Assembly (NCBI GenBank): GCA_942493095.1 | Contig: OW818675.1 | Coordinates: 2,970,001 to 3,002,000, forward strand | Direction of reading: 5' to 3' | Length of the DNA: 32,000 bases | Origin: Candidatus Electronema halotolerans | GTDB taxonomy: Bacteria; Desulfobacterota; Desulfobulbia; Desulfobulbales; Desulfobulbaceae | In this document: positions 2,835-26,380 of the stretch, in pieces | Numbering within the stretch: the stretch's first letter is position 1 | How the letters are laid out: each line of letters begins with the position of its first letter | Translations under genes and position numbers: made by a program | Notes under the pieces: model-generated | Seen by the model: the letters and a program-made list of their open reading frames with translations, nothing else | The model's database searches: none | What the model was told of the DNA's origin: nothing

Positions 2835-2903
2835 AGTCTCCTCCTTTTGCAAGACTGAAATATTGATTTTTAAGCTGTGGCGGCAGCATGACGCGCTTGA
2901 AAT

Positions 2904-3404: not shown

Positions 3405-5528
3405 CTATTCATCGTAGAGGCTGTCTCCGGCCCCGTCCTCCGGTAGGATTTCATCCGCATAGACCTCTGAAGCAGCCGAACCAACAGCCGGAATGCACTG
3501 CTGGCGCACCTTTTGATCAATTTCCAGCAGCATTTCAGGATGCTCCTTCAGGAACGTCTTTGAGTTCTCCCGGCCTTGACCGATGCGCTCGTCATTATAG
3601 GAATACCAAGCCCCACTCTTGTCAACGATCTTCCGATCCACTGCCAAATCAAGGAGATCTCCTGTCCGGGAAATGCCCTCGCCGTAGATGATGTCAAATT
3701 CGGATTCCTTGAAAGGCGGCGCAACCTTATTTTTGACCACCTTGACTCTGGTGCGGTTGCCGATCATCTCCTGCCCGTCCTTGATCTGGCCAATGCGGCG
3801 GATGTCAAGGCGCACCGAGCTGTAGAATTTGAGGGCATTGCCGCCAGTGGTGGTTTCTGGAGAGTTATGCACCACCACGCCGTCAACAAGATAGCAATGA
3901 TTGCCTTCCACTTCCAAGTCGAACCGGTTCATGTCTCTGGTTTCAGGTTTTTCATGGATATCGAGAATAGGCATAGGAACAGCTTTCAAGACACGCTGGG
4001 CAGTGCACTCGAACGGGACAAATTGCCCGCGTAACTTAGGCAATAGTTTGTATTCCATTGACGGATGCACGTAGGGAGCAATCATTGCATGAAATTTCGG
4101 CGTTTCCTGAACACCGAAATTGATCAAACCACGCGCCGTGAGCGTGGCCATGATTCCGCGCTGATGAAACCAGCGCACCAAAGCCTGCTGCTTCTCCAGC
4201 GAAAATCCCGCACAGCAAATTGAGCAGCGATTCTCCCGTTCACTGTCAAAAGTGCCATCATCCATATACCAAATGGCAACTGCAAGCGGAGTGAGATGAT
4301 CAATCAATGCCTGTGAGGGATTCTTACCAGTTTCGGCATAATTTTCTTGGCTCAGTTTGGTCAGTTCATACATTGGGATGGTATCAAAACTGTGACCGCC
4401 TCTCATATTTGTTGTCTCCGAGCCGATCAACCCCTCAAAAAGCGATTGTTTCCAAAGACAGTAAGCATCTTGAGCCTGACCATGTCCAATGCGAAGCGCA
4501 GTGTTGTAATCACTTACCTGTCGCAAACTACCATCTCCAAGAATAGAGCCAAACACGACTTCTTCCTGAACTGGCGAAAGATAGTGTTCAACCATTGTCA
4601 TCAAGCGATCACCAACCTTCAGTTCTCCTGCTGATTTGTATCCGTATTCGGAAAGCAGCAGATGATTAGTTGTGCAACCAAAGGTATGATGTCCATTGCC
4701 GCTGTTAGCATCCACTGTGAATTGGAGAAACAGCTCGGCGGGGCCGTTATTGAACCAGTTGACAATGCGGCGCGGCTCAAAGGCACCCGTTGTCACATCA
4801 TAGGATATGACTTCAAGAGGCATCTTCTGGTTGACAATTTTGCCTATTTTTTCTGTTGTGCCGTCAGCAAGCACCACCCGTGCGTTATAATGAAAGCATC
4901 CGAACATCACCCCGATTTTCATCCTGATCTGATTGATGAAAATCAACACCGTATTGGTTTTCTGAATCACGCTGGTGAACTTGCGCATGGCTTGAGACAT
5001 CAGCCGGGCTTGGAGGCCAACATGCATATCGCCGACATTGCCGTCAATCTCCGCTTTTGGCACTAAAGCTGCCACCGAGTCAATGACAATCACATCCAGC
5101 CCGCCGCTGCGCATGAGAATTTCGCAGATTTCCAGAGCCTGCTCGCCGAAATCCGGCTGTGAGACCAGCAGGTTGTCAACATCCACGCCCAATTTTTCCG
5201 CATAGGTGGTGTCAAGGGCATGTTCCGCGTCGATGAAGGCCGCATTGCCGCCTGCCCGCTGGGCCTCGGCAATGACGTGCAGGGCCAGCGTGGTCTTGCC
5301 GCTTGATTCCGGGCCGTAGATTTCCGTCACCCGCCCGCGAGGCAGGCCGCCCACGCCCAAGGCAAGGTCAATGCCCAAGGTGCCGGTGGAGATGACCGGA
5401 ATGTTGAGCCGCTCATGCTCGCCAAGGCGCATGATTGAGCCTTTGCCGAACTGCCGATGAATCTGGCTGATCGCGCTGTCAACGCTTTTCTGTCGTCCTT
5501 CCGCCTGTTTATCCTGGGTTGCTGCCAT
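3405..5528 (-). CDS. recA: recombinase RecA precursor interrupted by an in-frame intein
   Basis: The N-extein carries the RecA motifs [13 protein letters not shown] (Walker A), [12 protein letters not shown] and [14 protein letters not shown]. The C-extein is [23 protein letters not shown]...[24 protein letters not shown]. 345 unrelated residues lie between them. The track ORF starts at 5552, but AGGAGA precedes the ATG at 5528 (MAATQDKQ...), so 5528 is preferred. The spliced product would be about 362 aa. Confidence 0.9.
3864..4898 (-). mobile_element. RecA intein (345 aa) with LAGLIDADG homing-endonuclease domain
   Basis: - Starts with Cys (TGC at 4898-4896; [13 protein letters not shown], block A).
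- Has a TxxH block B (CTTNHLLL).
- Has two LAGLIDADG-type motifs ([11 protein letters not shown] and [11 protein letters not shown]).
- Ends ...[20 protein letters not shown] (His-Asn; AAC at 3866-3864), followed by Ser+1 (TCT at 3863-3861).
- The sequence is A+T-rich relative to the exteins: the line at 4321 has 24/60 G+C, the extein line at 5281 has 40/60. Confidence 0.85.
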
Positions 5529-5999
5529 TGTCATTCTCCTGTCATGGGTCAAAGCGGCAGCATTCTGCTGCCAGAGCAGATTGTATCAAAGCAACGGGAC
5601 TTGCGGCAAGATAATTTGCCGTGCTTCACCGCAGGCAACGGCATCCTATCGTTGCAGCAGCAAAGCATCTTATCTGAATTGTGGAAAAAATCTGAACGCA
5701 GATGGGAAATTCTTTTATGAGGGCGGCGGCCTGTTCATTGGCGCAGTCGCCTCTTCCGGCAAGGCAGGTCCGCCCAAGGCGATGCCTTGGGCTGATCTAT
5801 CGCAACCTTTTGGATTGGTGAAAAAAAATCTGAAGGAGTTCCGGTGCAAGTGAGCACGGAGCAGCACTCCCTCCAAACTTCGGCCAGCTCCCTGCTCTTC
5901 CCCATCATCCCCATCATCCCCATCATCCACATAGCCTTCCCCGCCGGGCGCACTTACAACTTGAATCCACACTCTTGGCAAGGAACTCTGGCTGCGCTG

Positions 6000-8182: not shown

Positions 8183-8875
8183 TTAAAGCTGTTTGTGATC
8201 GAGCTGTTCGAGCCGCGACAGCCATTCAGCAAAATGAGGGCACTTCTCGCGAATTGCATTCAAGCCGATCAATTCAGCCACCTGCGGCCCTATGACAGAC
8301 TTTGCATATTTGTAATCAGGAAGCTGGGCGATGATGCGTTTGCTGGGAGCTGTTGCCAGGCCGTCATCAATCAGTTCCGGTGAGGCAAAGTCATCCGCAA
8401 TGGCTTGAAGTGCGGCAATTGCCTTTGCATCCTGCGGATAGAAAAGGGCAAATTGTGCAGGTTCAGCAAACAGACACGCCTCATACTCATGCAACTGGAC
8501 ATAAGGGACAAAGCGCGAATCGCCAATGTCATCGGCAAAAGCCTGCTCAAGCAGCGCAACACGTTCCACTGGTGAATTGCGCAGTCGTTCCGCCTCGTTC
8601 CAGCCGGGAAAATCATCAGGAAGGGCATAGAGGTCAATCATGGTGGTGAAAAACACATCATCAGCCTTTTCCTGAGCTGCAAAGCGCAGGATGTCAGCCT
8701 TGACCGGCGCGTACTTGAGTACGCCGCCCCGATGCACTTTGCCCCTTTTTCTTGCATGAGCGATGAGAATCGGCCCCTGCATGAACACTCCGAAAGCAGC
8801 AAGATACGGTTTGAGCACTGTGTCGGCAAAGGTCTGCTCTGTCTGCCCTTCGGCGAAAAGATACAGCCGGGCCAT
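8183..8875 (-). CDS. DUF4276-like protein (predicted TOPRIM-like nuclease partner of the upstream ATPase)
   Basis: 230 aa. The N-terminal strand-Glu motif is MARLYLFAEGQTEQTFADTVLKPYL, followed by an acidic segment FFTTMIDLYALPDDF. This matches my recollection of DUF4276-family proteins, which in annotated genomes sit next to AAA/ABC ATPases. Its start codon shares one nucleotide with the ATPase stop (TGATG at 8877-8873). Confidence 0.65.
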   Translation of the reverse strand: MARLYLFAEGQTEQTFADTVLKPYLAAFGVFMQGPILIAHARKRGKVHRGGVLKYAPVKADILRFAAQEKADDVFFTTMIDLYALPDDFPGWNEAERLRNSPVERVALLEQAFADDIGDSRFVPYVQLHEYEACLFAEPAQFALFYPQDAKAIAALQAIADDFASPELIDDGLATAPSKRIIAQLPDYKYAKSVIGPQVAELIGLNAIREKCPHFAEWLSRLEQLDHKQL

Positions 8876-10002
8876 CAGTGCGGCCCTCCGCCGGTGATAA
8901 TGTTTTTCTCCCAGACTTCGCCAAGGCTGTAATCTTCAAGCCATGCCTCCAGTTCTTTCGGATCAAGCCGTCTGAACTGCGATTCATTGCCTTTCCGATT
9001 CGTCACAATCACATCTTCCGCCTCAAAGCTGTTGAGGAAGGTGCTTGACTGGGTGCTGACAAGCACTTGCGTGTGCTGCGAAGCCCGGCGGAACAAGGAG
9101 GCTATGACATTGAGAGCATAAGGATGCAGGCCGAGTTCAGGCTCGTCAACAATGATCAGATCAGGCAGTTCATTTGCTGGCTGCATGAGCAGCGTGATCA
9201 GACAGATAGCGCGCAGGGTGCCATCTGAAAGCTGGTGGGGGCCGAAGACCTGATCAGACCCTTTTCCCCGCCAATTCAGCATGATCTCCCGTTTGCCCGG
9301 ACCGGTTGGCTCCAGATCAAAGTCATCAAAAAACGGGGCGATGAGACTGACTGTCCTGACAATTGGATGATACGCAGCACCGTCTTTTTCATGGCGCAGT
9401 CTGTAAAGCAGAGCGGCCAAGTTGCCCGCATCAGGCATCAGCCAGTAGTCATCGGCGATATAACAGTATTGGTGAATCCGCGCCGTGGGCGAGGTGTCAT
9501 GAAAATGATAGACCCGGCAACGAGTGAGCAGATGGATTAACCCCCGCACCTCCATTTTATGAAATGAGCTAATGTCCTTTGCTGAGTTTGCCAGTGAGAG
9601 CATCCGTGTTTCACGATGTCCTGCGGCTAATGAAATCTTCTTTGGAGATGGATGCCCAGATGAAAAGAAGCTCAGAATCTCTTCAGCAAAAACAAGTGTA
9701 TCTCCCGTTGCATGAATCAAGCGCATTTCATAGATGTTCTTGCTGCTGTCCACTTCAAATTCCAGCTTGGCCTCCATCTGCGGTGTCATCTTGGGGCCAA
9801 AGTGCAGTAGGGACTGCGCACGCCCGGACATGCCAATGTGCTGCTGAAGCCGCTCCGCCATCATCTCGTTGAGCATCTTGAAAAATGAGACAAAGTTGCT
9901 CTTTCCAGCCCCGTTCGCCCCAATGAGGACATTCAGATTGCGCAGCTCAATGTCCATTTCTTTAATGGACTTGAAGCCTTTAATGATTATCCGTTTCAGC
10001 AT
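8875..10002 (-). CDS. ABC/OLD-type AAA ATPase (AAA_15/AAA_21-like), no fused nuclease domain
   Basis: 375 aa. The N-terminal strand is MLKRIIIKGFKSIKEMDIEL. Walker A GANGAGKSNF, ABC signature-like QLSDGTLRAI and Walker B/D-loop DLIIVDEPELGLHP are present, followed by LVSTQS. This layout is typical of the SMC/OLD-like ATPases of Septu PtuA, PARIS AriA and Gabija GajA type. Confidence 0.8.
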   Translation of the reverse strand: MLKRIIIKGFKSIKEMDIELRNLNVLIGANGAGKSNFVSFFKMLNEMMAERLQQHIGMSGRAQSLLHFGPKMTPQMEAKLEFEVDSSKNIYEMRLIHATGDTLVFAEEILSFFSSGHPSPKKISLAAGHRETRMLSLANSAKDISSFHKMEVRGLIHLLTRCRVYHFHDTSPTARIHQYCYIADDYWLMPDAGNLAALLYRLRHEKDGAAYHPIVRTVSLIAPFFDDFDLEPTGPGKREIMLNWRGKGSDQVFGPHQLSDGTLRAICLITLLMQPANELPDLIIVDEPELGLHPYALNVIASLFRRASQHTQVLVSTQSSTFLNSFEAEDVIVTNRKGNESQFRRLDPKELEAWLEDYSLGEVWEKNIITGGGPH

Positions 10003-12064: not shown

Positions 12065-12430
12065 CTACTGCTGTTCATCGTTGTCCCCGGCCAGCAGGTC
12101 CATGATTTTGTCCACAGACAGTTTGGACAGATCAGTGACCTTGCCGCGAATCTTGAGATAGACAGGTTTTCCGTTCGTCTGAATTGCTGCGAGCAGCTTT
12201 TTGACCCGCTCCATGCGCTTAACTCGTTCGGCAAACTGAAGCGAGCCTTCAATTGTGGCTGCGATCACGACAAGCTGCCAGATTACATCGCCCGGCCCTT
12301 TATGCTCGCCATCCGGCGGCGGTGCTGGGGTGAACTGCGCAGTCTGCTGCAACTCGCTCTGAATGAATTCTGCCACAGCAGCTTCCAGTTCCGGCTTGTC
12401 TTTGGGCAGGCGAAATTCTATTTCAGTCAT
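12065..12430 (-). CDS. small hypothetical protein, EACC1-like (effector-associated constant component) by pattern
   Basis: 121-aa ORF with an ATG start and a weak RBS. The layout is:
- an N-terminal strand (EIEFRLP)
- a helix (ELEAAVAEFIQSEL)
- a Pro-rich linker ending in GxxG (PAPPPDGEHKGPGD)
- a hydrophobic helix (VIWQLVVIAATIEGSL)
- a C-terminal beta-alpha unit (KPVYLKIRGKVTDLSKLSVDKIMDLL)
The family call rests on recollection of EACC1 sequences only. Confidence 0.5.
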   Translation of the reverse strand: MTEIEFRLPKDKPELEAAVAEFIQSELQQTAQFTPAPPPDGEHKGPGDVIWQLVVIAATIEGSLQFAERVKRMERVKKLLAAIQTNGKPVYLKIRGKVTDLSKLSVDKIMDLLAGDNDEQQ

Positions 12431-12474: not shown

Positions 12475-12756
12475 TTAATAAACTTGATCATGCTTGCCTA
12501 TATCAAGCAGAACAATGACTTCAACATCCGCGCTTTGTTCGAGCGAGAACACAATTCGGCAATCATAGCCGCAACTACATGCGCGCAGCCCTTCCAATGT
12601 TCCGCTCAGTTTATGCGTATTCAGTGATGATGAGAAAATATCTTCCTGCATTTGTTCAAGAGTCATTTCAATGCTCTTCAGCAGTTTCTTGTCGCGGCGG
12701 ACAAATTTGCTGAAAGCTCGCTTGAACTTTGGGGTTACAACCAGCTCGCGTCTCAT
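12475..12756 (-). CDS. type II toxin, RelE/ParE (RelE/StbE-YafQ-like) mRNA interferase family
   Basis: 93 aa: ...FKRAFSKFVRRDKKLLKSIEMTLEQMQED...LNTHKLSGTLEGLRACSCGYDCRIVFSLEQ...IVLLDIGKHDQVY. This is the characteristic HKL.G.L.G...C....D.RI.F....I.LL.IG.HD.VY pattern. An ATGA overlap joins it to the upstream small ORF. Confidence 0.8.
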   Translation of the reverse strand: MRRELVVTPKFKRAFSKFVRRDKKLLKSIEMTLEQMQEDIFSSSLNTHKLSGTLEGLRACSCGYDCRIVFSLEQSADVEVIVLLDIGKHDQVY

Positions 12757-12980
12757 TCCTCTTTGTTCATGTATTCCCGAAGTTCTTTGATCGCATCCTG
12801 CGCTGACTGAGGTTTCAGCTCGCCTCGGCGAAACATTGCTAAAGAATCTTTTGCATCTCTGGAAATTTCGTGCCGCACAGCTTCAATGTCCCAGCTATGT
12901 ATCAAATCAGCAAGTATTTTCCGCTGTCTTGGAGAAAAATGTCGGATTGTTTCCACCACCTGTTCAAATGTCATGGACAT
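12753..12980 (-). CDS. putative antitoxin of the RelE/ParE-type toxin
   Basis: The track gives a 129-aa ORF (to 13142) that would overlap the 3' end of the 1329-aa gene. GGAGGA lies 8 nt upstream of the internal ATG at 12980, giving a 75-aa protein MSMTFEQVVETIRHFSPRQRKILADLIHSW...FRRGELKPQSAQDAIKELREYM. Its size, position and 4-nt overlap with the toxin fit an antitoxin. Confidence 0.6.
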   Translation of the reverse strand: MSMTFEQVVETIRHFSPRQRKILADLIHSWDIEAVRHEISRDAKDSLAMFRRGELKPQSAQDAIKELREYMNKEE

Positions 12981-13098: not shown

Positions 13099-16000
13099 TC
13101 AGGCATCTGGTTCAACAATACTCCATTCCTCGAATTTCTCAAGGGTTTCTATGGGCTGATTGCCGCTGATGACCTCAGCAAGGGCGGCCAGCAGCGCAGG
13201 GTTGGGATGGCCGTCCTGCTCGGCCCTGCGGACATTGTCTGTCAAGTTCCAGCCAAGGGAGCGCACCCCGTCCAGCAGGAGTTTTTTCAGAGGGCTGAGA
13301 GTCTGGGGCTGGCAGTGGGCGTAGCGGTAGAAGGCCAGTTCTACAGCTAAATCCGGGGCTTCTTTTTCCTGATGCTGCTCTGCCTGTTCCAGCATTTCGA
13401 CAGCCTTGCTGCGATTGCCTTGCACGAAAAGAAGTTTGGCGTAGTTGCCAAGATTGTTTGCATCTTTCGGGTCAGCCTCCACAGCCCGCTCGTACATGGC
13501 TTCCGCTGCTGCGTAATCTTGCTTCTGCTGCCAAAGAAAATTTGCGTAGTTGCCGAGATTGTTCGCATGATTCGGGTCAGCCTCCACAGCCCGCTCGTAC
13601 ATCGCTTCCGCCGCTGCGTAATCTTGCTTCTGAAAATGCAAAAAATAGGCGTATCTGCCGAGATTGCGCGCATGATTCGGGTCAGCCTCCACAGCCCGCT
13701 CGTACATCGCTTCCGCCGCTGCGTAATCTTGCTTCTGAAAATGCAAAAAATAGGCGTAGTTGTCGAGATTGTTCGCATGATTCGGGTCAGCCTCCACAGC
13801 CCGCTTGTACATGGCTTCCGCTGCTGCGTAATCTTGCTTCTGATTCGCCAGAAAGAGAGCGTAGTTGCCGAGAGTGTTCGCATGATTCGGGTCAGCCTCC
13901 ACAGCCCGCTCGTACATCGCTTCCGCCGCTGCGTAATCTTGCTTCTGATTCTTCAGAAAGAGGGCGTAGTTGCCGAGAATGTTCGCATGATTCGGGTCAG
14001 CCTCCACCGCCCGCTCGTACATCGCTTCCGCCGCTGCGTAATCTTGCTTCTGATTCTCCAGAAAGACAGCGTAGTTGCCGAGATTGTTCGCATGATTTGG
14101 GTCAGCTTCTATAGCCCGCTCGTACATGGCTTCCGCTGCTGCGTAATCTTGCTTCTGCTGCCAAAGAAAAGTGGCGTAGTTGCCGAGATTGCGCGCATGA
14201 TTCGGGTCAGCCTCCACCGCCCGCTCGTACATCGCTTCCGCTGCTGCGTAATCTTGCTTCTGATTCTTCAGAAAGAGGGCGTAGTTGCCGAGATAGATAG
14301 CTCTTTCTTTATCTGTTTTTGCCAATTGCAGAGCTGTGTCCAGCCGGTTTTCTTCATCTGCCAGATCAGCGTCCTGCAAAAGTTTCTCTGTGGTTTTGTC
14401 CAGTTCGCCAAAATACAGAAAATATGCCTGCCTGAGCAGTTCTCCTCTTCCCGAAAATTGACTGAACATCAAAAAAAGAATACCTTGAGACTCTTTTTCT
14501 GCTTCTTTTTTCTTTTTATCGCGCTCTTCATCAAAAACTTTATACAGTTCGGTAAACTGAAAGACAGATAACCCCTCTAAAGCATAGCCACTCACCCGTA
14601 ATTTTTCAAAAACATGAAGTGAAAGCGACAGCTCAAGATAATTGATAAACGTATCTGCATCAAAGCCGATTTCCTCCCAATCTGCTGCACAGTTCCTAAT
14701 GCAAAGCCGATGCAAAGCGGCAATGCGCCGCTGGTCTGTCTCGCTGGAGAGCGGCAGTTCTCCTGCATATTCGGCGGAAAAATGATTAGCGCGAATAAAG
14801 TCAATACTCTCCTTGAGAGTCTCTGTTTCCGGCACCGCATACTCTGCCAAAAAATCCTTGAACCAAATCCGCCAGAGCAGCGGCGCGCAAATCTTGGCCA
14901 GAAAATTTCTATCCTCCCGGCCCAGCGGCTCCACCACCTTCCTTGCCAAACCATAGCAGGAAATATGGCCGTCCACATCCCGGCCCTGCCAATGACAGAG
15001 CAGGCCGAAGTTGTCCAACCGTTGCAGGGCTGCTGCCGGATCAGCAATTCCGGCCTTTGGACCAGCTTGCAGGAGCAGCTCTTCCGGCACCGGCACCTCA
15101 AACAGAGTCAGCAGACGCAGGAACTCACGTTCGCTGTTGCGCAGTGCCCGACTGTAAACCTCCAAGGCAATGCGCTGAAAATACTTGTCAACTTCATCCG
15201 CAGGCGATGCTGCTTCCAGCTCGGCTTGCGAGGCGGCAATTCGCTGCAAAGCACTGTCCAACGCGGCCAACTCGCCCTTGAGCAGCGGCGGAAAAAGCAC
15301 GGCCTGCAAACCGGGATTGCCCTGCGCTGCGGCAAAAATCCGCTCCAGATACTGCGCATCCTGAACCTTATCCCGCTCTTGGCTCCCGTCGCGCTGGAGC
15401 AAAGCCAGCCAGTGCTTTTCCTGCTCGGCCACAGTCATGTCCGGCACATTGATTGCCCGCAGCTTGGCGCACAAATCCTCGCCGTGGCGGTTGCGCAGAG
15501 TGAAGCAGCAGCGGGAGGTGAGCAGCAGGCGCGAGTCGGTGTCCGCTTCGGCAAACGCTTCAATCAATGCCTTGAAAACAGGTTGATATTCCCGCTTGAC
15601 CTCGGCCTTGTCTCCTTGCGTAGGCAGCGGCTCCAGAATGTGCTGCTCCAGATCGTCTGCCACCAAAACTATGGGCTGCTGATCAAAGATCCCTTCCAGC
15701 AGGCTCAGGAGAATGCCTTTCAGCCTGCCCGGATCCGCCTGCACCTTGGCTAACAGCCCAGCAAAATCAATCTCCGCATCCCGCGCAGCATCTTGCAGCA
15801 CTTCCAGCAGATCAATGGCCTGATAATGGCGATACAGGACAGCGGCCTTGCAGCGCGGCTCCAGCCGGTCAACAATCCGGGCCGCCAAGCTGGATTTGCC
15901 CGTGCCGCCAATGCCGTAGAGCAGCACGGGCCGCTGCTCGGCAAAGGCTTGCAGAGCCTCCTTGGTCTGCCAGCGTCTGCCGACAAAAGTTTCCCGGCTG

Positions 16001-17088
16001 GCAACCTGCACTTCCCCTTTTTTGTTGTCCAACAGCTCATGGCAGGGCCGCCCGCCGCGCTTGGGACTTTTCGGCTGCCGCCGCGAAATCAGGGGCAGGC
16101 CGCCTGCCGGGCCGAGACAGCAGCGGGCGGAATGCCAGTACGGGCAGCCTTCCCGGAGCATGGCCTGCCGGGCAAGAGCGCAGGCTGCGGGCACAGTTTC
16201 CTCAAATTGCAGGGCCTGATAAAAATGCTGGGCAAAACGGGTCGCGTCCTCGTCTGCTACAGCTCCGTCCCAGCCGACAAGATTGGCAATACCGAGGCGG
16301 GCCAGTTCAACCAGCAGCGAACGATGGTCGCGGTGTTCCGCGCTGTGGCAGGCTGAGAGAAAAAGAGTGCTGAACTGGTCGCGCAGGGGAATGAAATCAT
16401 GGGCCGTCGCAGGCAGGAGGCCGAATTGCCGGTCTTCGAGATGCAGGACAAAACCGCGTTCCGGGTCAAAGCTGCCGTGACAGGAAAGATGGAGGACATC
16501 GCAATGAGCGGTGTCAAGAAGGCGACTGCGCAGCCCGTCCAGACTGCCGGATTCATCGACAATCAGATTGAGCGTGCGACAGGTGCGGGCAGCGGCGAAA
16601 ATGGCCCGCTCTTCCGCTTCATAGCTGAGACCGCTGCTCAGTTCCGGGTCAGCGGCCATGAAAACTAAGGTCAGATCGCGGTATTGCGGCTGGCGCAATG
16701 TGGGTGCTGGTTGACCAGCGCGCCGGAGCACTTCAAAAGGCTGAGGAGCAGCAGCAAGAAATTGGCTGTCTGCGGCGAGAATCTCCCACGGCAGCCGCAG
16801 GAGCAGTTCGTCATCATCTGCCTCAGCAAGAACAATGAGCTGCCGCGTGCCGGGCGCATCCAGCCATTGCCGGAGAAGCTGCGGATTGCCGTTGAAAATT
16901 AACTCAGCCAGCCGTTCACCAAGTGCAAGCAGGGCGGCGTTGTCTCCAGATTGACGCAGGTCGGCGTAGGTTTCGTAGCAGTCCTCTAACCCGCTGCGCA
17001 GTGCATCAGTCAGGTCGATGGACAGCGGCGGCTGGCTGGCAAGGTTGAGGAGCAGATTGTTGTCAGCAAGCTGAAGCGTCAGATTCAT
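13099..17088 (-). CDS. CHAT (caspase-like) protease - STAND P-loop NTPase - TPR repeat protein (NLR/Avs-like tripartite architecture)
   Basis: 1329 aa.
- CHAT-type catalytic dyad contexts: DVLHLSCHGSF (His204, nt 16479-16477) and TLFLSACHSAE (Cys247, nt 16350-16348).
- NTPase: FVGRR...PVLLYGIGGTGKSSLAARIV (Walker A, residues 392-399) and QPIVLVADDLEQ (Walker B).
- A helical region of about 450 aa.
- A C-terminal array of 35-aa TPR-like repeats (DYAAAEAMYERAVEADPNHANNLGNYA.FL..QKQ). Confidence 0.9.
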   Translation of the reverse strand: MNLTLQLADNNLLLNLASQPPLSIDLTDALRSGLEDCYETYADLRQSGDNAALLALGERLAELIFNGNPQLLRQWLDAPGTRQLIVLAEADDDELLLRLPWEILAADSQFLAAAPQPFEVLRRAGQPAPTLRQPQYRDLTLVFMAADPELSSGLSYEAEERAIFAAARTCRTLNLIVDESGSLDGLRSRLLDTAHCDVLHLSCHGSFDPERGFVLHLEDRQFGLLPATAHDFIPLRDQFSTLFLSACHSAEHRDHRSLLVELARLGIANLVGWDGAVADEDATRFAQHFYQALQFEETVPAACALARQAMLREGCPYWHSARCCLGPAGGLPLISRRQPKSPKRGGRPCHELLDNKKGEVQVASRETFVGRRWQTKEALQAFAEQRPVLLYGIGGTGKSSLAARIVDRLEPRCKAAVLYRHYQAIDLLEVLQDAARDAEIDFAGLLAKVQADPGRLKGILLSLLEGIFDQQPIVLVADDLEQHILEPLPTQGDKAEVKREYQPVFKALIEAFAEADTDSRLLLTSRCCFTLRNRHGEDLCAKLRAINVPDMTVAEQEKHWLALLQRDGSQERDKVQDAQYLERIFAAAQGNPGLQAVLFPPLLKGELAALDSALQRIAASQAELEAASPADEVDKYFQRIALEVYSRALRNSEREFLRLLTLFEVPVPEELLLQAGPKAGIADPAAALQRLDNFGLLCHWQGRDVDGHISCYGLARKVVEPLGREDRNFLAKICAPLLWRIWFKDFLAEYAVPETETLKESIDFIRANHFSAEYAGELPLSSETDQRRIAALHRLCIRNCAADWEEIGFDADTFINYLELSLSLHVFEKLRVSGYALEGLSVFQFTELYKVFDEERDKKKKEAEKESQGILFLMFSQFSGRGELLRQAYFLYFGELDKTTEKLLQDADLADEENRLDTALQLAKTDKERAIYLGNYALFLKNQKQDYAAAEAMYERAVEADPNHARNLGNYATFLWQQKQDYAAAEAMYERAIEADPNHANNLGNYAVFLENQKQDYAAAEAMYERAVEADPNHANILGNYALFLKNQKQDYAAAEAMYERAVEADPNHANTLGNYALFLANQKQDYAAAEAMYKRAVEADPNHANNLDNYAYFLHFQKQDYAAAEAMYERAVEADPNHARNLGRYAYFLHFQKQDYAAAEAMYERAVEADPNHANNLGNYANFLWQQKQDYAAAEAMYERAVEADPKDANNLGNYAKLLFVQGNRSKAVEMLEQAEQHQEKEAPDLAVELAFYRYAHCQPQTLSPLKKLLLDGVRSLGWNLTDNVRRAEQDGHPNPALLAALAEVISGNQPIETLEKFEEWSIVEPDA
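13414..14292 (-). repeat. tandem array of 8 complete 105-nt (35-aa TPR-like) repeats plus a partial ninth, inside the 1329-aa CDS
   Basis: Unit boundaries on the minus strand are 14253, 14148, 14043, 13938, 13833, 13728, 13623 and 13518. The plus-strand string gattcgggtcagcctccac recurs exactly at 13569, 13674, 13779, 13884, 13989 and 14199, with a variant at 14094. This is strict 105-nt phasing. Confidence 0.95.
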
Positions 17089-17118: not shown

Positions 17119-17945
17119 TTATCTGCCCGGTCTGTTGAAATTTTCCTCCAGCGCAGCGATTTCCGCCACCGACAAACCGGTTGCCTCGGCCACGAGTTCA
17201 GGGGCAACGCCCTTCCGCAGCAGATTCTTGGCAATCAGCAGCTTTTCCTTCTTTGCCCCCTCTTTAATGCCCTCCTCAAATTTGGTCTGCTGGAGTTCCT
17301 CTTGATGATATTCCTCAATCATTCTGGCCCGCTCCTCCGGCGACAGCTGATCCCGCCGAATGGCCTCGAACAATTTCTGAATCACCGCCTGACCGTACAG
17401 GCTCTCGTCCACCTCTTCATCAAGGGTGTCGTTGCGTTGATGGCCCGCAGCCATTCTCGGTACGGCTCCGGCGTTGCGTCGGAAACATATTTCGGGCAGA
17501 GATAAATCACCTTATGGGAAAGTTCCTGAAGCGGCTGTCCGGTCAAATCACGGGAATCAAAATCAATCACCGCAATGTCCCGCTGGTGACGGTCGCCAGA
17601 GGTCAGAACTACCACGGTATATACGGTCAAGGGCGGGCGATAATTCTTGGAACTCGCCACTTGCTCCAATAACGCCGCGCAGTGGTAATAGAGAAAGCGG
17701 TCGTAGTGATCGTTGGTTCGGGCGTGCTGAATATCAACAATCAGCCGGTGCTCGGTGTCTTCCGCGAAAAGATCAAAGCGGGGCTTGACATAGCCGAGGG
17801 GCGGATCGAATTCCTTTTCTGTCTCCACATGCTCAATGCTGACAGGCCGACCGATCATATCGCGGGCAAAGGCCGTGAAAATCTCCGGGTCGCAGAAAGC
17901 CTTCTTGAAAACCACTCCGTATTTTAGCGAAGCGACTTGTTTCAT
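17119..17945 (-). pseudogene. Rpn-family / PD-(D/E)XK nuclease family transposase gene split by a frameshift
   Basis: ORF 17382-17945 gives the nuclease core (LKYGVVFKKAF...FDLFAEDTEHRLIVDIQHAR...YYHCA...) and ends ...PEPYREWLRAINATTPLMKRW*. ORF 17119-17454, in another frame, continues with NDTLDEEVDESLY...KEGAKKEKLLIAKNLLRKGVAPELVAEATGLSVAEIAALE, the usual C-terminal HTH tail of this family. The frame switch maps to about 17425-17445. Confidence 0.7.
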
Positions 17946-17977: not shown

Positions 17978-18595
17978 TTATTCCTTCCGCATCAACGCAG
18001 GATAATCCTGCCGCAGAAAATTATGCAGCAGCACCAGTCCGGCCTTGGTCATGATGGACTCAGGATGAAACTGCACTCCTTCCACGGCCAAAGTCTTGTG
18101 GCGCAGGCCCATCAGCTCGCCCTGATCGGTGTGGCAGGTTGCTTCGAGACAGTCCGGCATGGTGCTTTCCTCAACCACCAAAGAATGATAGCGCATTCCT
18201 TCAAAGGGATTGGCCAAGCTGGTGAACACGCCCTTGCCGTCGTGGAACATCGGGCTGGTTTTGCCGTGCATGACCCGGCCCGCCCGGATCACTTTGCCGC
18301 CAAAAGCCTCGCCAATGGACTGATGGCCAAGACAGACACCGAGAATGGGAATCTTGCCGCTGAAATGCTGAATCGCGGCCACGGAAATACCCGCCTCCTT
18401 GGGTGTGCAGGGGCCAGGCGAGATCAGCAGGCGGTCGGGCCGCATGGCCTCAAATTCCTGCACCGTGATCTTGTCATTGCGGAAGACCCGGATTTCCGGC
18501 GGCTGCCAGTTTTGCGGCGCATCTGGCGGCGCAGCGGCCAAGGTCTGAACAATATTGAAGGTGAACGAGTCGTAGTTGTCAATAATGACGATCAT
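17978..18595 (-). CDS. trpG: anthranilate synthase component II (glutamine amidotransferase; TrpG/PabA type)
   Basis: MIVIIDNYDSFTFNIVQ...LLISPGPCTPKEAG...PILGVCLGHQSIGEAFGG...HGK...RYHSL...GVQFHPES is a class-I GATase with the Cys-His-Glu triad context. The ATG at 18595 overlaps the trpE stop (TGATG). The track start at 18598 is a GTG. Confidence 0.85.
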   Translation of the reverse strand: MIVIIDNYDSFTFNIVQTLAAAPPDAPQNWQPPEIRVFRNDKITVQEFEAMRPDRLLISPGPCTPKEAGISVAAIQHFSGKIPILGVCLGHQSIGEAFGGKVIRAGRVMHGKTSPMFHDGKGVFTSLANPFEGMRYHSLVVEESTMPDCLEATCHTDQGELMGLRHKTLAVEGVQFHPESIMTKAGLVLLHNFLRQDYPALMRKE

Positions 18596-20079
18596 CACAG
18601 CGGCAGCCCCTGCTCGGCAAGTTCGACAGCCCGGCGCAAAGCGCGGGCCTTGTTGACAGTTTCCTCAAATTCCGTTTCCGGCACTGAGTCGGCGACAATG
18701 CCTGCCCCGGCCTGAATCCAGAGATTATCACCCTGCATGACAAAAGTGCGGATGGTGATGCAGAAGTCCATGTTGCCGGAAAATCCGAAATAACCGACCG
18801 CGCCTGCATACGGCCCGCGCCGGTCCGGCTCCAGCTCGTCAATGATTTTCATGGCCTGAATCTTGGGCGCGCCGCTGACCGTGCCTGCCGGAAAACAGGC
18901 TTCCAGCACGTCAAACTGATCTTTGCCCTCGGCCAGACGACCATGCACGCCAGAGACGATGTGCATGACATGGCTGTACTGCTCGACCACCATCAGGTCG
19001 CGCACCTCAACGTGGCCGCGCTCCGCCACCCGGCCTGTATCGTTGCGGCCCAGATCAACCAGCATCAGATGCTCGGCCCGCTCCTTGGGGTCAGCAAGCA
19101 GCTCTTCGGCCAATGCCGTGTCTTCCTCTGCATTGGCACCGCGCTTTCGGGTCCCGGCAATCGGACGCAGCTCAATCTCGTCATCCTCCAAGCGCACGAG
19201 AATTTCCGGCGAAGAACCGATCAGGAAGAGATCATCCAAGCGGAGATAAAAGAGATAGGGGCTGGGATTGACATGCCGCAGGCAACGGTAGAGCAGGAAG
19301 GGGTCAAGCTGGGTCTTACTCTGAAACCGCTGTGACAGCACTACCTGAATGATGTCGCCTGCTAAAATATGCTCTTTGGCCTGCTCAACCATGCGGCAGA
19401 AGGTTGACTCATCCATGTTGGAGCGGAACTGATGCGGCTCGCAGCCTGCGGAGGACAAGAGAGCTGCTGGCACAGGCTGCCGGAGCTGCTCCAGCACCGC
19501 TTCAATCCGGGCGCAGCCGTCGGCGTGCAATGCCGTAGCGTCCTTGCCTGCCTTTGGCACCACATTGCAGACCACAGTCAGTTTCTGGCCGACTGAATCA
19601 TAAATCAGGACCAGCCGAGGCACGATGAAGGAGGAATCAGGAATATTCATCGGCACATGGCTGTCCGGGATTTCTTCAATAAAGCGAATCATGTCATAGC
19701 CAAGAAAACCAACCAGACCGCCGTAGAAACGAGGCAGGCCCGGCGCAGTGCTGGCATTGAAGACCTTGAGCAGCTCGCGCAGCTCCTTGAGCGGATTGAC
19801 ATTCTCCCGGATTTCCTCCTCCTGGCCGCTGCGGGTCAGCGTGACTTGGCCGCCTTTGGAGGAAAAGGTCAGCAGCGGGTCAAGACCGATGAAGGAGTAG
19901 CGGCCCCATTTTTCCCCGCCGGTCATGGATTCAAAGAGAAAGGCGTGCCGCTCTTTGCCTGCTGTTTTGGCAAAGATGGTCAAGGGTGTTTCCAAATCCG
20001 CGATCACCGTCCGATGCAGCGGAACTAATCCGGCCTGCTCCATCAGCTCAGAGAACGCTTTCAGCTCAGGAAAATACAT
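18595..20079 (-). CDS. trpE: anthranilate synthase component I
   Basis: FLFESMTGGEKWGRYSFIGLDP, ...SPEILVRLEDDEIELRPIAGTRKRG..., LMLVDLGRNDTGRV and GAVGYFGFSGNMDFCITIRT are TrpE/chorismate-binding motifs. The track start at 20085 is a TTG. The first ATG is at 20079 (MYFPELK). Confidence 0.9.
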   Translation of the reverse strand: MYFPELKAFSELMEQAGLVPLHRTVIADLETPLTIFAKTAGKERHAFLFESMTGGEKWGRYSFIGLDPLLTFSSKGGQVTLTRSGQEEEIRENVNPLKELRELLKVFNASTAPGLPRFYGGLVGFLGYDMIRFIEEIPDSHVPMNIPDSSFIVPRLVLIYDSVGQKLTVVCNVVPKAGKDATALHADGCARIEAVLEQLRQPVPAALLSSAGCEPHQFRSNMDESTFCRMVEQAKEHILAGDIIQVVLSQRFQSKTQLDPFLLYRCLRHVNPSPYLFYLRLDDLFLIGSSPEILVRLEDDEIELRPIAGTRKRGANAEEDTALAEELLADPKERAEHLMLVDLGRNDTGRVAERGHVEVRDLMVVEQYSHVMHIVSGVHGRLAEGKDQFDVLEACFPAGTVSGAPKIQAMKIIDELEPDRRGPYAGAVGYFGFSGNMDFCITIRTFVMQGDNLWIQAGAGIVADSVPETEFEETVNKARALRRAVELAEQGLPL

Positions 20080-20091
20080 GATCAATCTGCG

Positions 20092-20512: not shown

Positions 20513-21160
20513 CTATTTGTGCTTTGCGCTGGCTTGTCCGGTCCGGGATTGTTCTGCTGAAACAGAAGCGGAAGAAGACGGCTGCTCCGCCGCCTGTCTC
20601 AGGCCGAGCAGATACTGCCAGAAGCGGATTTCCTCAGCCGTGCTGGGCACAGGCGGCACAACTTCGATCACTGGCACCTCATCAACAGAACGCCGGGCCA
20701 TCTCCGCTGCTGCTGTCTGCCAATCAGCGAAGAGATCAGGAATATCTGTTGCGGCCTGTTTCTTGTCAATCCTGTTTGCACCTTTTCCCGGCCATGTTTT
20801 GACTGCGTCGCCTTCTAAAATCGTGCCGTTCAGGTCAGCTCCAGCCAAGTCGGCTCCGATCAGCCATGCGCCGTGCAGATCAGCATCCCTCAGATTGGCC
20901 GAAGTCAAACAGGTGAAATTGAGCTGCGCTCCAGTCAGGTTCGCGCCCTGCAAATCCGCTTTGGCCAGATTGAGATGATTCATGACCGCGCCGCGCAGAT
21001 CACAGCTTGGACAGGCATTGGTGGTGAGAAGCTGATTGAAATGCTTTTGGATATCAGGGTAAGGCGAACCGAGCAGCTCGGCGCGGCAATGGCCGCCCCA
21101 GAACTGCGCTGCAATAAGCAACCACACCGGACGGAAAAAAATGCGCCCGCAGAACTTCAT
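20513..21160 (-). CDS. pentapeptide-repeat protein with N-terminal signal/anchor
   Basis: The hydrophobic N-terminus is RPVWLLIAAQFWGG. It is followed by consecutive A(D/N)LxG-type pentapeptides: CDLRGAVMNHLNLAKADLQGANLTGAQLNFTCLTSANLRDADLHGAWLIGADLAGADLNGTIL. Confidence 0.8.
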   Translation of the reverse strand: MKFCGRIFFRPVWLLIAAQFWGGHCRAELLGSPYPDIQKHFNQLLTTNACPSCDLRGAVMNHLNLAKADLQGANLTGAQLNFTCLTSANLRDADLHGAWLIGADLAGADLNGTILEGDAVKTWPGKGANRIDKKQAATDIPDLFADWQTAAAEMARRSVDEVPVIEVVPPVPSTAEEIRFWQYLLGLRQAAEQPSSSASVSAEQSRTGQASAKHK

Positions 21161-24871: not shown

Positions 24872-26380
24872 TTATGTCAAGCCTTTAGGCGTGAAGTTCA
24901 GTTCAAATTCCAGCTTTGGCTCCCGAATCAGAGCCGGGAAGTCAGGCAAGGGCTCGGCACTGCGCAGGGCCTTGAGCACAGACTGGTCAAACAGGGCATC
25001 GCCGGATTTTTTCTCAATTTTTATATCGTCAATCGCCCCTTTTTTGCTGACGGTCAAGGCAACCACGGTTTTCAGGCCCTTGCTGGCCGCCATCAATTCC
25101 GGCAGCTTCCAGCAGCTGCTGATTTTATCATTCAAGGATGCAGCATAGCGATTCAAGACAGCAGGACTGGAGCCTGCACCCCGGCCATTGCCGCCGGTGC
25201 CAGCCGCTGAAGCTGGGCCGCTGCCGTGAACTGCGGCCACGACCGATTTGACCGCCGCATCTTCCTGGAGAGCACGGGCTAACTGTGCTCTGGCCTGCGC
25301 CGCCGCCTGCTGGGCCTGCTGGGCTTCCTGTTCAATCCGTTTCGCCTCTGCCAAGGCCTCGCGCCGTTTCTGCTCGGCCAACTGTCTGCGAGCCGCCGCC
25401 GCTTTTTCAGCCTTTTCAGCGGCAGCCTTTTTCTCTTCCGCCAATTTAGCCGCTTTAACCTGCGCCTCTTTCTTCTTAGCTTCAGCGATTTTCGCCTGCT
25501 CGACCTGCCGCGCTTTTTCCGCAGCAGCCTTTTTTTCTTCCGCCAATTGAGCCGCCTTGACCTGCGCCTCTTTTTTCTTGGCTTCAGCGATTTTCGCCTG
25601 CTCGACCTGCCGCGCTTTTTCCGCAGCAGCCTTTTTTTCTTCCGCCAATTTGGCTGCTTTAACCTGCACCTCTTTTTTCTTAGCCTCGGCAAGCTGCAGC
25701 TCTTCAGCCTGCCGCGCCGCCGCTTCCTTTTTCTTAGCTTGTTCAGCAACCGCTTCTTTTTGCACCGGAGGCGCAGCTTTCTGCTTCTCCGGGTTGAGCG
25801 AAACAGCCTCCTTGGGCGCAGCCTGCGGTGCTGCCACTGCTTTCTTGACCGCCTGCGCCGGTTTGATGACCTCAATCTTTGCCACTGTCTGCTGCGGGGC
25901 CGGTTTTTCCGGCTCAGGAGCTACCGCTGTCTTGACTTCCACCTTTTCCACGGTCTTTTCAACCACCACCGGCAAAGGCGGCTCCGGCTTGCTCTCCACC
26001 ACAGGCTTGGGCGGCGGGGCAACCGCCTTTTTCACCGCATTATGAGGCCGGATGATCTCCACCGTTTTCGCAACAGGCCGGGCCGGTTCCGGTTCCGGCT
26101 CCGGCGCAGGTTCCGCAACAGGGGGCGGCTCAGTGACTGGCGCGGCCTCTTTGGCTGCCGGGGGGGCAGGGCCGGATTCATTCATGCTGATCAAATCGAC
26201 CGTGACAATGTTTTCCAAATTGAATTTAGGCCTGCTGTCGGTCAGGTTCTGCAACACTGCCGCGCTGCCAAACAGGGCAAGATGGAGGGCCACTGCCAGA
26301 TTCAGCGGCCACTGCCAGCCAGCGCCGTCATCGCGCTGGGCCAGAAAAAGCTCCCATTCATCACGCCGCATTACGCTCAT
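24872..26380 (-). CDS. tolA: TolA-like cell-envelope integrity protein (TonB/TolA C-terminal domain)
   Basis: An N-terminal TM anchor (WPLNLAVALHLALFGSAAVL) is followed by a Pro-rich spacer and a long Lys/Ala/Glu helical domain. The C-terminal TolA/TonB-like domain reads NRYAASLNDKISSCWKLP...VVALTVSKKGAIDDIKIEKKSGDALFDQSVLKALRSAEPLPDFP. An ATGA overlap joins it to tolR. Confidence 0.75.
   Translation of the reverse strand: MSVMRRDEWELFLAQRDDGAGWQWPLNLAVALHLALFGSAAVLQNLTDSRPKFNLENIVTVDLISMNESGPAPPAAKEAAPVTEPPPVAEPAPEPEPEPARPVAKTVEIIRPHNAVKKAVAPPPKPVVESKPEPPLPVVVEKTVEKVEVKTAVAPEPEKPAPQQTVAKIEVIKPAQAVKKAVAAPQAAPKEAVSLNPEKQKAAPPVQKEAVAEQAKKKEAAARQAEELQLAEAKKKEVQVKAAKLAEEKKAAAEKARQVEQAKIAEAKKKEAQVKAAQLAEEKKAAAEKARQVEQAKIAEAKKKEAQVKAAKLAEEKKAAAEKAEKAAAARRQLAEQKRREALAEAKRIEQEAQQAQQAAAQARAQLARALQEDAAVKSVVAAVHGSGPASAAGTGGNGRGAGSSPAVLNRYAASLNDKISSCWKLPELMAASKGLKTVVALTVSKKGAIDDIKIEKKSGDALFDQSVLKALRSAEPLPDFPALIREPKLEFELNFTPKGLT
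25409..25690 (-). repeat. 2.8 copies of a 102-nt (34-aa) tandem repeat in the TolA helical domain
   Basis: AEAKKKE(V/A)QVKAA(K/Q)LAEEKKAAAEKARQVEQAKI occurs twice, followed by a 26-aa partial copy. The plus-strand string cgacctgccgcgcttttt recurs at 25501 and 25603. Confidence 0.9.

Follow-up and report, generated by a model that had tools for sequence, protein, structure and literature searches.

A CHAT protease-STAND NTPase-TPR protein and its small conserved partner: a candidate two-gene, protease-gated system in a cable bacterium

Candidatus Electronema halotolerans is a cable bacterium, a multicellular and filamentous member of the Desulfobulbaceae. A stretch of 32,000 nucleotides of its genome (GenBank assembly GCA_942493095.1, contig OW818675.1, positions 2,970,001 to 3,002,000 of the forward strand), hereafter the window, contains a gene for a 1329-amino-acid (aa) protein that joins an N-terminal CHAT protease domain, a STAND NTPase module, a helical domain and a C-terminal TPR array, and a gene for a protein of 121 aa which, judged by its recurrent linkage to such large genes, is their conserved partner. 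The two genes probably make up an NLR/Avs-type system for abortive infection or cell death that is gated by a protease, interrupted in this genome by a toxin-antitoxin (TA) cassette. The features that carry this reading, in window coordinates, are the following.

13099..17088, minus strand: gene for the CHAT protease-nSTAND1 NTPase-helical domain-TPR protein, 1329 aa, CAK8723559.1 (single ATG-initiated open reading frame, Pfam)
16144..16923, minus strand: CHAT (caspase-hemoglobinase fold) protease domain, residues 56-315 (Pfam, invariant dyad, fold matches)
16477-16479 and 16348-16350, minus strand: codons of the catalytic His204 and Cys247, respectively, within the CHAT domain
15109..16002, minus strand: STAND NTPase module (nSTAND1/AAA_16), residues 363-660 (Pfam, motif invariance, fold matches)
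15892-15915, minus strand: Walker A, G392-S399; the module also holds Walker B (D478-D479 with E481) and the sensor arginine R526
13339..14340, minus strand: TPR sensor array, approximately residues 917-1250 (Pfam TPR families, TRF, per-codon analysis)
12065..12430, minus strand: small partner protein, 121 aa, CAK8723547.1, probable EACC1-type pro-toxin or substrate (adjacency, AlphaFold2 model, conservation)

Domain architecture and conservation of the large protein

An exact-sequence look-up matched the large protein to database entry CAK8723559.1, annotated as 'AAA ATPase domain-containing protein'. The original prediction, made from the DNA letters and the open reading frames (ORFs) alone, had described one 1329-aa ORF with an intact protease dyad and intact NTPase motifs, arranged as effector, STAND NTPase and repeats in the manner of NLR and Avs proteins, and had proposed profile searches and a structure model as checks; all of this was borne out. 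The translation carries VLHLSCHG with His204, LFLSACHS with Cys247, GIGGTGKS with Lys398 and IVLVADD at residues 473-479. In Pfam the three parts were recovered at the expected residues as CHAT, nSTAND1/AAA_16 and TPR, the first two above their cut-offs: CHAT (PF12770) at residues 56-315 with E=4e-21 and a score of 76.1 bits (cut-off 24), the match extending over positions 3-271 of the 289 in the profile; nSTAND1 (PF20703) at residues 363-660 with E=4e-8 and 33.7 bits against 27.1, a small margin; and AAA_16 at residues 367-482 with E=1e-9 and 39.6 bits against 32.6. Many TPR families matched at roughly residues 917-1250.

Residue conservation was read from an alignment of the 1329-aa protein with 105 homologues of at least 900 aa (106 sequences). 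His204, Gly205 and Cys247 are invariant in this set, as are Gly394, Gly397, Lys398, Glu481, Thr524 and Arg526 of the NTPase module, and the Walker B residues Asp478 and Asp479 are present in 105 and 104 of the 106 sequences, respectively. An AlphaFold2 model of residues 1-700, built from 27 sequences (mean pLDDT 86.7), places His204 directly after the beta-strand 198-202 and Cys247 directly after the adjacent strand 241-244, as in the caspase-hemoglobinase fold. Consistent with this placement, the top PDB matches of the model in Foldseek were Csx29 (8eey_B, E=5e-10) and a SAVED-CHAT protein (8tl0, E=2e-8), with separase (5fby/5fc2, E=4e-7) also found, and the NTPase half matched AAA+/ORC-type ATPases and the plant ZAR1 resistosome, ranked after the CHAT matches. 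A PDB search by sequence gave no match to the protease-NTPase part, the full profile matching TPR entries only. Because Pfam, residue invariance, model and fold matches agree, the CHAT and STAND assignments hold, and from the intact invariant residues both enzymatic modules look active.

The arrangement is widespread and has already been described. A search with residues 1-900 returned 174 protein clusters at E<=1e-5, nearly all of which combine CHAT, AAA_16 (often nSTAND1) and TPR and which come from Thiotrichales, Vibrio, Pseudoalteromonas, Rhodospirillales, Magnetococcales, cyanobacteria, Streptomyces, Kitasatospora and others. When one genome of each GTDB species was scanned, 338 relatives were confirmed. 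The original prediction had regarded the domain order as the reverse of the common one, a view that has to be given up in the face of these clusters and relatives with an N-terminal CHAT domain, the order being reversed only relative to Csx29. Bacterial NLR-like proteins often carry a caspase-like CHAT domain at the N-terminus (Dyrka et al. 2020 preprint), caspase-STAND-repeat proteins are part of conflict systems that have been predicted in multicellular bacteria (Kaur et al. 2020), and nSTAND1, defined in 2021, was noted in 'EACC1 conflict systems' (Kaur et al. 2021).

A homogenised TPR array with three hypervariable positions

The C-terminal array is built from a 105-bp tandem repeat at 13438-14294 (8.2 copies, TRF), which encodes eight near-identical TPR units of 35 aa (residues 938-1217, nucleotides 13438-14277) with 80-95% identity at the DNA level. 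When the eight units were compared codon by codon, 69 of the 136 non-synonymous codon-pair differences fell in only three of the 35 codons, namely those for positions 1, 4 and 5 of the unit (pattern x-F-L-x-x-Q). None of the synonymous differences lies in these three codons, and 108 lie in the rest of the unit. The spacing i, i+3, i+4 puts the hypervariable residues on the same side of a helix. Orthologues likewise have units homogenised within each protein, and the same positions vary.

This repeat variation supports the view that the array is a ligand-binding sensor under diversifying pressure. The pattern itself is a known phenomenon: it is reported for fungal and some bacterial NLRs with internally conserved repeats, where it goes with binding specificities that change fast (Dyrka et al. 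2020 preprint). With three hypervariable positions per homogenised unit, the array offers a compact model for the retuning of specificity in bacterial NLR-like sensors.

A small protein encoded beside the CHAT-STAND-TPR gene

The original prediction had seen no obvious substrate gene near the large gene and had passed over the small ORF at 12065-12430 as merely EACC1-like. Comparison across lineages overturned this point, given that the ORF is a conserved partner gene and its product the likeliest target of the protease. At one related locus (L001), whose large gene is 62% identical, a 119-aa ORF downstream is 78% identical to the 121-aa protein. A homologue of 117-124 aa follows the large gene on its 3' side in Pseudoalteromonas, Thiofilum, Kitasatospora, a metagenome contig and Ca. 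Electrothrix scaldis (complete chromosome), with a gap of 1 bp or an overlap of 4-8 bp with its stop codon. An iterated profile found the family at 39 of 90 loci, spread over several phyla, and every copy detected is adjacent to the CHAT-STAND gene and co-directional with it; an overlap of 4 bp between the two is frequent. In the closest clade, all eight loci with enough flanking sequence have the partner. It lies 3' at most loci and 5' at about ten (L037, L040, L043, L047, L050, L053, L059, L070, L077 and L081), so the partner gene can occupy either side of the protease gene. In two database proteins (P0184 and P0202) the small domain is fused behind TPR or other sequence.

The family is narrow. 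A word search gave 62 clusters and a single-round profile 29 representatives at E<=1e-3 among 1.84 billion proteins, all entries being labelled 'hypothetical' and lacking a Pfam domain. No family in Pfam, NCBIfam or PADLOC matched the 121-aa protein, and a PDB sequence search with it gave no match.

In an AlphaFold2 model built from 37 sequences (pLDDT 80), the small protein folds as a ferredoxin-like unit whose first elements are beta1 (2-9), alpha1 (13-27) and beta2 (33-36). An exposed, flexible loop of low model confidence follows at residues 37-50, PPPDGEHKGPGD, and the remaining elements are beta3 (51-58), which is hydrophobic, the long alpha2 (66-86), a hairpin of beta4 and beta5, and alpha3. 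Fold-search matches of this model were generic ferredoxin-like or PII proteins with weak scores (E>=0.009) and were dismissed as uninformative. The residues best conserved across 106 members of the partner family are Arg69, Asp107, Leu101 and Leu79; in the loop, position 44 is basic (K or R in 96 of the 106; Lys44 in the 121-aa protein), and an acidic residue stands four positions later, at 48. The hydrophobic segment of the small protein spans residues 49-67. In other lineages, the part aligned to its DVIWQLVVIAATIEGSLQF reads (R/K)GDPVAIAALVLAIPSAILA, a strongly hydrophobic stretch in whose middle small residues cluster, and the alignments show the same character in the central segment as a whole (...GDPVAIAALVLAIPSA...), examples being AALVLAIPSA in relatives and VVIAATIEGS in the 121-aa protein. 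From the model, residues 37-50 are the predicted cleavage loop.

Proposed mechanism and alternative roles of the small protein

A two-gene conflict system made up of EACC1 and a caspase has been described as 'System 4' (Kaur et al. 2020). According to that work, EACC1 is small and has a conserved hydrophobic helix that includes small residues, with short alpha+beta extensions on both sides; its partner has a caspase-superfamily peptidase at the start, after which STAND NTPases and repeats may follow. In the preprint of Evans et al. 2025 (PMC12642450), EACC1 of Ktedonobacter racemifer is cut at Asp49 by the caspase of an Avs12 fusion (KrAvs12), a reaction seen once a phage tail-connector protein is present; the N-terminal fragment is inhibitory, whereas the C-terminal fragment is toxic and permeabilises liposomes. 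Since its size, linker position, hydrophobic core, type of partner and taxonomic spread fit these descriptions, the small protein of Ca. Electronema halotolerans is probably EACC1-type, an assignment made by its match to published descriptions and regarded by us as quite likely.

By analogy with the EACC1/caspase-Avs12 system, from which cleavage of the partner, pore formation, a phage trigger and cell death are all carried over, and with what is generally established for STAND proteins, it is reasonable to suppose the following course of events. The large protein would act as combined sensor, switch and protease, its C-terminal TPR array binding a trigger which may be a phage protein. Binding would free the nSTAND1 NTPase for ATP binding and oligomerisation, and oligomerisation would gather the N-terminal CHAT domains so that the His204/Cys247 protease is activated by proximity. 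The 121-aa partner, most likely its proteolytic target, would then be cut in the exposed loop 37-50, around His43-Lys44-Gly-Pro-Gly-Asp48, with removal of the N-terminal beta-alpha-beta piece, which is presumed to be inhibitory. The freed C-terminal piece with the hydrophobic segment could oligomerise in the membrane and bring about the death of the infected cell of the filament.

Several observations weigh against this protease-gated scheme. About 35 members of the partner family have no Pfam match even at E<=1 to 10, and among the more distant loci with complete flanks the profile search detected no partner in approximately half. A broad-profile search (A4) directed at the EACC1 of K. racemifer returned only 'hypothetical proteins', the Ktedonobacter protein not being retrieved. 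The described EACC1 gene lies 5' of the protease gene, whereas the partner here lies 3', the 5' order occurring among relatives. A comparison with PADLOC, another check that the original prediction had put forward, lent it no support, as neither the large nor the small protein matched PADLOC-DB v2.0.0 (2023) at E<=0.01, a library that predates Avs7-21. The large and small genes are about 670 bp apart with the TA cassette between them, and their coupled expression is thus not assured. Finally, the trpE-trpG neighbourhood of the locus is common to two genera of cable bacteria and is less typical of a mobile defence island.

It is possible, albeit rather unlikely, that the partner family is not EACC1 and constitutes a separate, undescribed family of protease-licensed membrane toxins, being unannotated, mostly encoded on the 3' side and translationally coupled. 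In cable bacteria such a pair would have long been kept at one site, maybe as a switch for cell suicide at the level of the filament, its TPR sensor being rapidly re-tunable, and might tolerate repeated insertion of TA and Rpn genes between the two genes.

The small protein could also serve differently, namely as a sensor or regulator associated with the membrane which switches on the caspase-like domain, in which case the protease would target itself or, broadly, cellular or phage proteins. A sensor/regulator role is the one first put forward for EACC1 by Kaur et al. 2020, the partner's central segment is hydrophobic enough for membrane embedding in most lineages, and for other CHAT or caspase-like proteases in defence, multiple or non-adjacent targets are mentioned (Evans et al. 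2025, PMC12642450). We consider this role unlikely: direct cleavage, a toxic C-terminal fragment and liposome leakage were reported for EACC1 (Evans et al. 2025, PMC12642450), the AlphaFold2 model depicts the 121-aa protein as soluble and ferredoxin-like with an exposed loop, as expected of a latent pro-form, and the large protein already has a TPR sensor of its own with hypervariable positions.

Genomic context and stability of the locus

The genes that interrupt or flank the pair, and the neighbours discussed below, are the following.

12753..12980, minus strand: putative antitoxin of 75 aa with its ATG at 12980 (shares an ATGA overlap with the start of the toxin; near-identical copy beside a YafQ toxin in L090)
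12475..12756, minus strand: RelE/YafQ-family type II toxin, 93 aa (YafQ_toxin in Pfam, E=7e-8; RelE_StbE in NCBIfam, 33.9 bits, above cut-off)
17119..17945, minus strand: an overlapping pair of ORFs (17382-17945 and 17119-17454) that lies between trpG and the system (PDDEXK_2 match in the first, Rpn-family C-terminal match in the second)
17978-18598: trpG, upstream
18595-20085: trpE, upstream
20513-21160: pentapeptide protein gene, upstream (with trpE and trpG, the same upstream set as in Ca. Electrothrix scaldis)
8183-10002, minus strand: HEC-01 candidate defence pair, namely an AAA_21/AAA_15 ATPase at 8875-10002 (HEC-01A, E=2e-140) and a DUF4276 protein at 8183-8875 (HEC-01B, E=1e-75), both by PADLOC

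The RelE/antitoxin cassette (12475-12980) sits between the large gene and its small partner, and all four genes point the same way, gaps of 118 and 44 bp lying between them. No family in Pfam or NCBIfam matched the putative 75-aa antitoxin, and a promoter and terminator scan of the locus gave signal at background level. A near-identical antitoxin and toxin are found at L090 (2-498), a closely related locus on a metagenome contig, followed there by an Rpn gene and then the small partner. At L001, an antitoxin remnant was observed downstream of the partner (5617-5865). From these positions, the TA cassette seems to move around the CHAT-STAND locus. The L001 locus further shows a spacer of 570 bp between large gene and partner (4666-5238), with several copies of a repeat of about 70 bp (gttgaaaagctgttgacaaac...gtttgaacagagcatt) that may be a small repetitive or mobile element.

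The ORFs at 17119-17945 together look like one frameshifted gene for an Rpn-family PD-(D/E)XK nuclease ('putative transposase'). The relatives L001, L090, L091 and probably L012 have intact Rpn genes beside the system. The possibility that the fragments in the window represent the same insertion as the Rpn genes of the relatives was considered and rejected, since 31% identity over the C-terminus indicates a different paralogue. In L012 (6001-9667; Ca. Electrothrix laxa) the CHAT-STAND gene is split into ORFs of 412 and 354 aa with most of the TPR part absent and the partner intact, which reflects either a pseudogene or assembly errors in a single-cell metagenome-assembled genome.

The gene order in Ca. 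Electrothrix scaldis is pentapeptide protein, rpsT, trpE, trpG, CHAT-STAND-TPR, small partner, Rpn, MacB, ABC and Lon. The window differs from it by the frameshifted Rpn-like gene after trpG, the TA cassette, and cobalamin genes downstream instead of Rpn-MacB-Lon. A 91%-identical copy of the large gene occurs in another context, beside ribF and rubrerythrin genes, and outside the cable bacteria the contexts are unrelated, often with transposases, recombinases or TA genes. Because contexts vary across lineages and the trp site is nevertheless kept in cable bacteria, the system is patchy and mobile at large scale and stably placed within cable bacteria, where small mobile cassettes repeatedly land. 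The original prediction had held that orthologues should occupy variable islands rather than fixed housekeeping contexts; the outcome was mixed, the surroundings in the other lineages being unrelated and rich in mobile elements, and the locus lying beside trpE-trpG in the two cable-bacterium genera.

The stable position raises the alternative that the pair works by the same protease-to-pore mechanism in a non-antiviral, vertically inherited cell-death or stress module of the filaments, for instance one that sacrifices damaged cells. Besides the trpE-trpG position common to Ca. Electronema and Ca. Electrothrix scaldis and the lack of a PADLOC match for the system proteins (2023 library), such a function is favoured by the enrichment of these systems in multicellular bacteria (Kaur et al. 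2020 Table 1) and by fusions of the EACC1-protease type to DnaK-like chaperones, which suggest stress sensing (Evans et al. 2025, PMC12642450). It appears improbable to us, given that the hypervariable, homogenised TPR units point to a fast-changing ligand, as is typical of conflict, that the family is distributed patchily over the phyla, in surroundings that are unrelated and abound in transposases, TA genes and recombinases, that the 91%-identical copy of the large gene sits elsewhere, and that characterised relatives of the same design respond to phage proteins.

That the system is uncoupled and decaying here, the TA insertion and the frameshifted upstream Rpn gene marking a locus being dismantled whose two ORFs no longer cooperate, is very unlikely: the cassette does split genes that overlap by 4-8 bp in relatives, the Ca. 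Electrothrix laxa copy is apparently broken into two ORFs and no convincing promoter signal was seen, but both ORFs are full length and retain all conserved residues (the invariant set in the large protein; Arg69, Asp107, Lys44 and Leu101 in the small one), the four co-directional genes with their short gaps are compatible with one transcript, and, because L090 keeps an intact small gene behind a near-identical TA cassette and an Rpn gene, such a separation has persisted without loss.

The HEC-01 pair lies about 2 kb from the small partner gene, beyond two methylase genes of the cobalamin pathway. This pair, the RelE/antitoxin cassette and the Rpn remnant are all within 5 kb of the system, and these elements lend the region only a modest defence-island flavour. 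Three further features were observed elsewhere in the window. The recA gene (3405-5552, minus strand; 715-aa ORF) is interrupted by an intein with a LAGLIDADG homing endonuclease, the N- and C-terminal parts of RecA flanking Intein_splicing and LAGLIDADG_2 matches. A 439-aa protein (1533-2852, minus strand) combines a HATPase_c_2 histidine-kinase-like ATPase with a C-terminal cyclic-nucleotide-binding domain and gave weak PADLOC matches to Pycsar effectors via the nucleotide-binding part only. A second tandem repeat at 25413-25684 (102-bp period, 2.7 copies, 91% match), inside a 502-aa ORF (24872-26380, minus strand), lies in a region of strong GC and AT skew.

Comparison with known systems

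Like Avs proteins, the large protein has an N-terminal effector, a central STAND NTPase with conserved motifs and a C-terminal TPR-like sensor; it differs from them in its nSTAND1-type NTPase and in having as effector a protease whose killing most likely depends on the product of a second gene.

The best structural matches to the CHAT domain, Csx29 of the type III-E Craspase and the SAVED-CHAT proteins associated with cyclic-oligonucleotide-based antiphage signalling systems (CBASS) or type III CRISPR, are proteases that, once activated, cleave the dedicated product of an adjacent gene. They are activated by Cas7-11/target RNA or by cyclic oligonucleotides and not by a STAND NTPase, and their domain order differs. 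Membership in a type III-E CRISPR system was rejected, as no CRISPR-like repeat or Rfam CRISPR family was found in the window and no cas-like domains in the scanned ORFs. Membership in a gasdermin system was likewise set aside; in agreement with the original prediction that no gasdermin-like gene lies nearby, Pfam and PADLOC matched none among the neighbours in the scanned region.

The TPR array resembles those of the fungal and bacterial NLRs with conserved TPR or WD repeats (Dyrka 2014/2020; Paoletti 2007), in which units are also 80-95% identical, vary at few positions on one helix face and are homogenised in each orthologue. CHAT is a frequent N-terminal domain of the bacterial NLRs (Dyrka et al. 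2020), as in the large protein. These NLRs have a NACHT or NB-ARC NTPase, whereas the large protein has nSTAND1/AAA_16.

The closest likeness is to the EACC1 systems. In both cases a non-enzymatic protein of about 115-130 aa is encoded next to, and in the same direction as, a caspase-superfamily-STAND-repeat gene, and both small proteins have a conserved central hydrophobic segment with small residues and alpha+beta parts on either side. The exposed linker near residues 45-50 is at a position similar to that of Asp49, the cut site in KrEACC1; nSTAND1, present in the large protein, has been reported in EACC1 systems; and these systems are enriched in multicellular bacteria, the host here being multicellular. 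Among the differences, the catalytic cysteine is at position 247 here and at 152 in KrAvs12, which implies a longer N-terminal part of the protease; the sensor is a homogenised array of 35-aa TPR units, unlike that of the KrAvs12 system; and in Ca. Electronema halotolerans a TA cassette separates the two genes, unlike in the described EACC1 systems.

The original prediction had ranked the locus as the most plausible uncharacterised system in the window. That standing has lapsed, since EACC1 and caspase-Avs12 of the same design have been characterised biochemically (Evans et al. 2025, PMC12642450), and the locus adds nothing conceptually new beyond the literature of 2020-2026. It is best classed as an EACC1-type protease-gated system with a caspase-STAND-repeat protein, on which the 3' order of the partner, the nSTAND1-TPR sensor clade, the TA insertion and the cable-bacterium host are minor variations. 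Recognition of a two-gene unit with a previously overlooked likely effector makes the question of the substrate directly testable. Moreover, this classification would extend the EACC1/caspase-STAND protease-gated pore systems to the cable bacteria of the Desulfobulbaceae and to a large, mostly unannotated CHAT-nSTAND1/AAA_16-TPR clade in Proteobacteria, Actinobacteria and other phyla.

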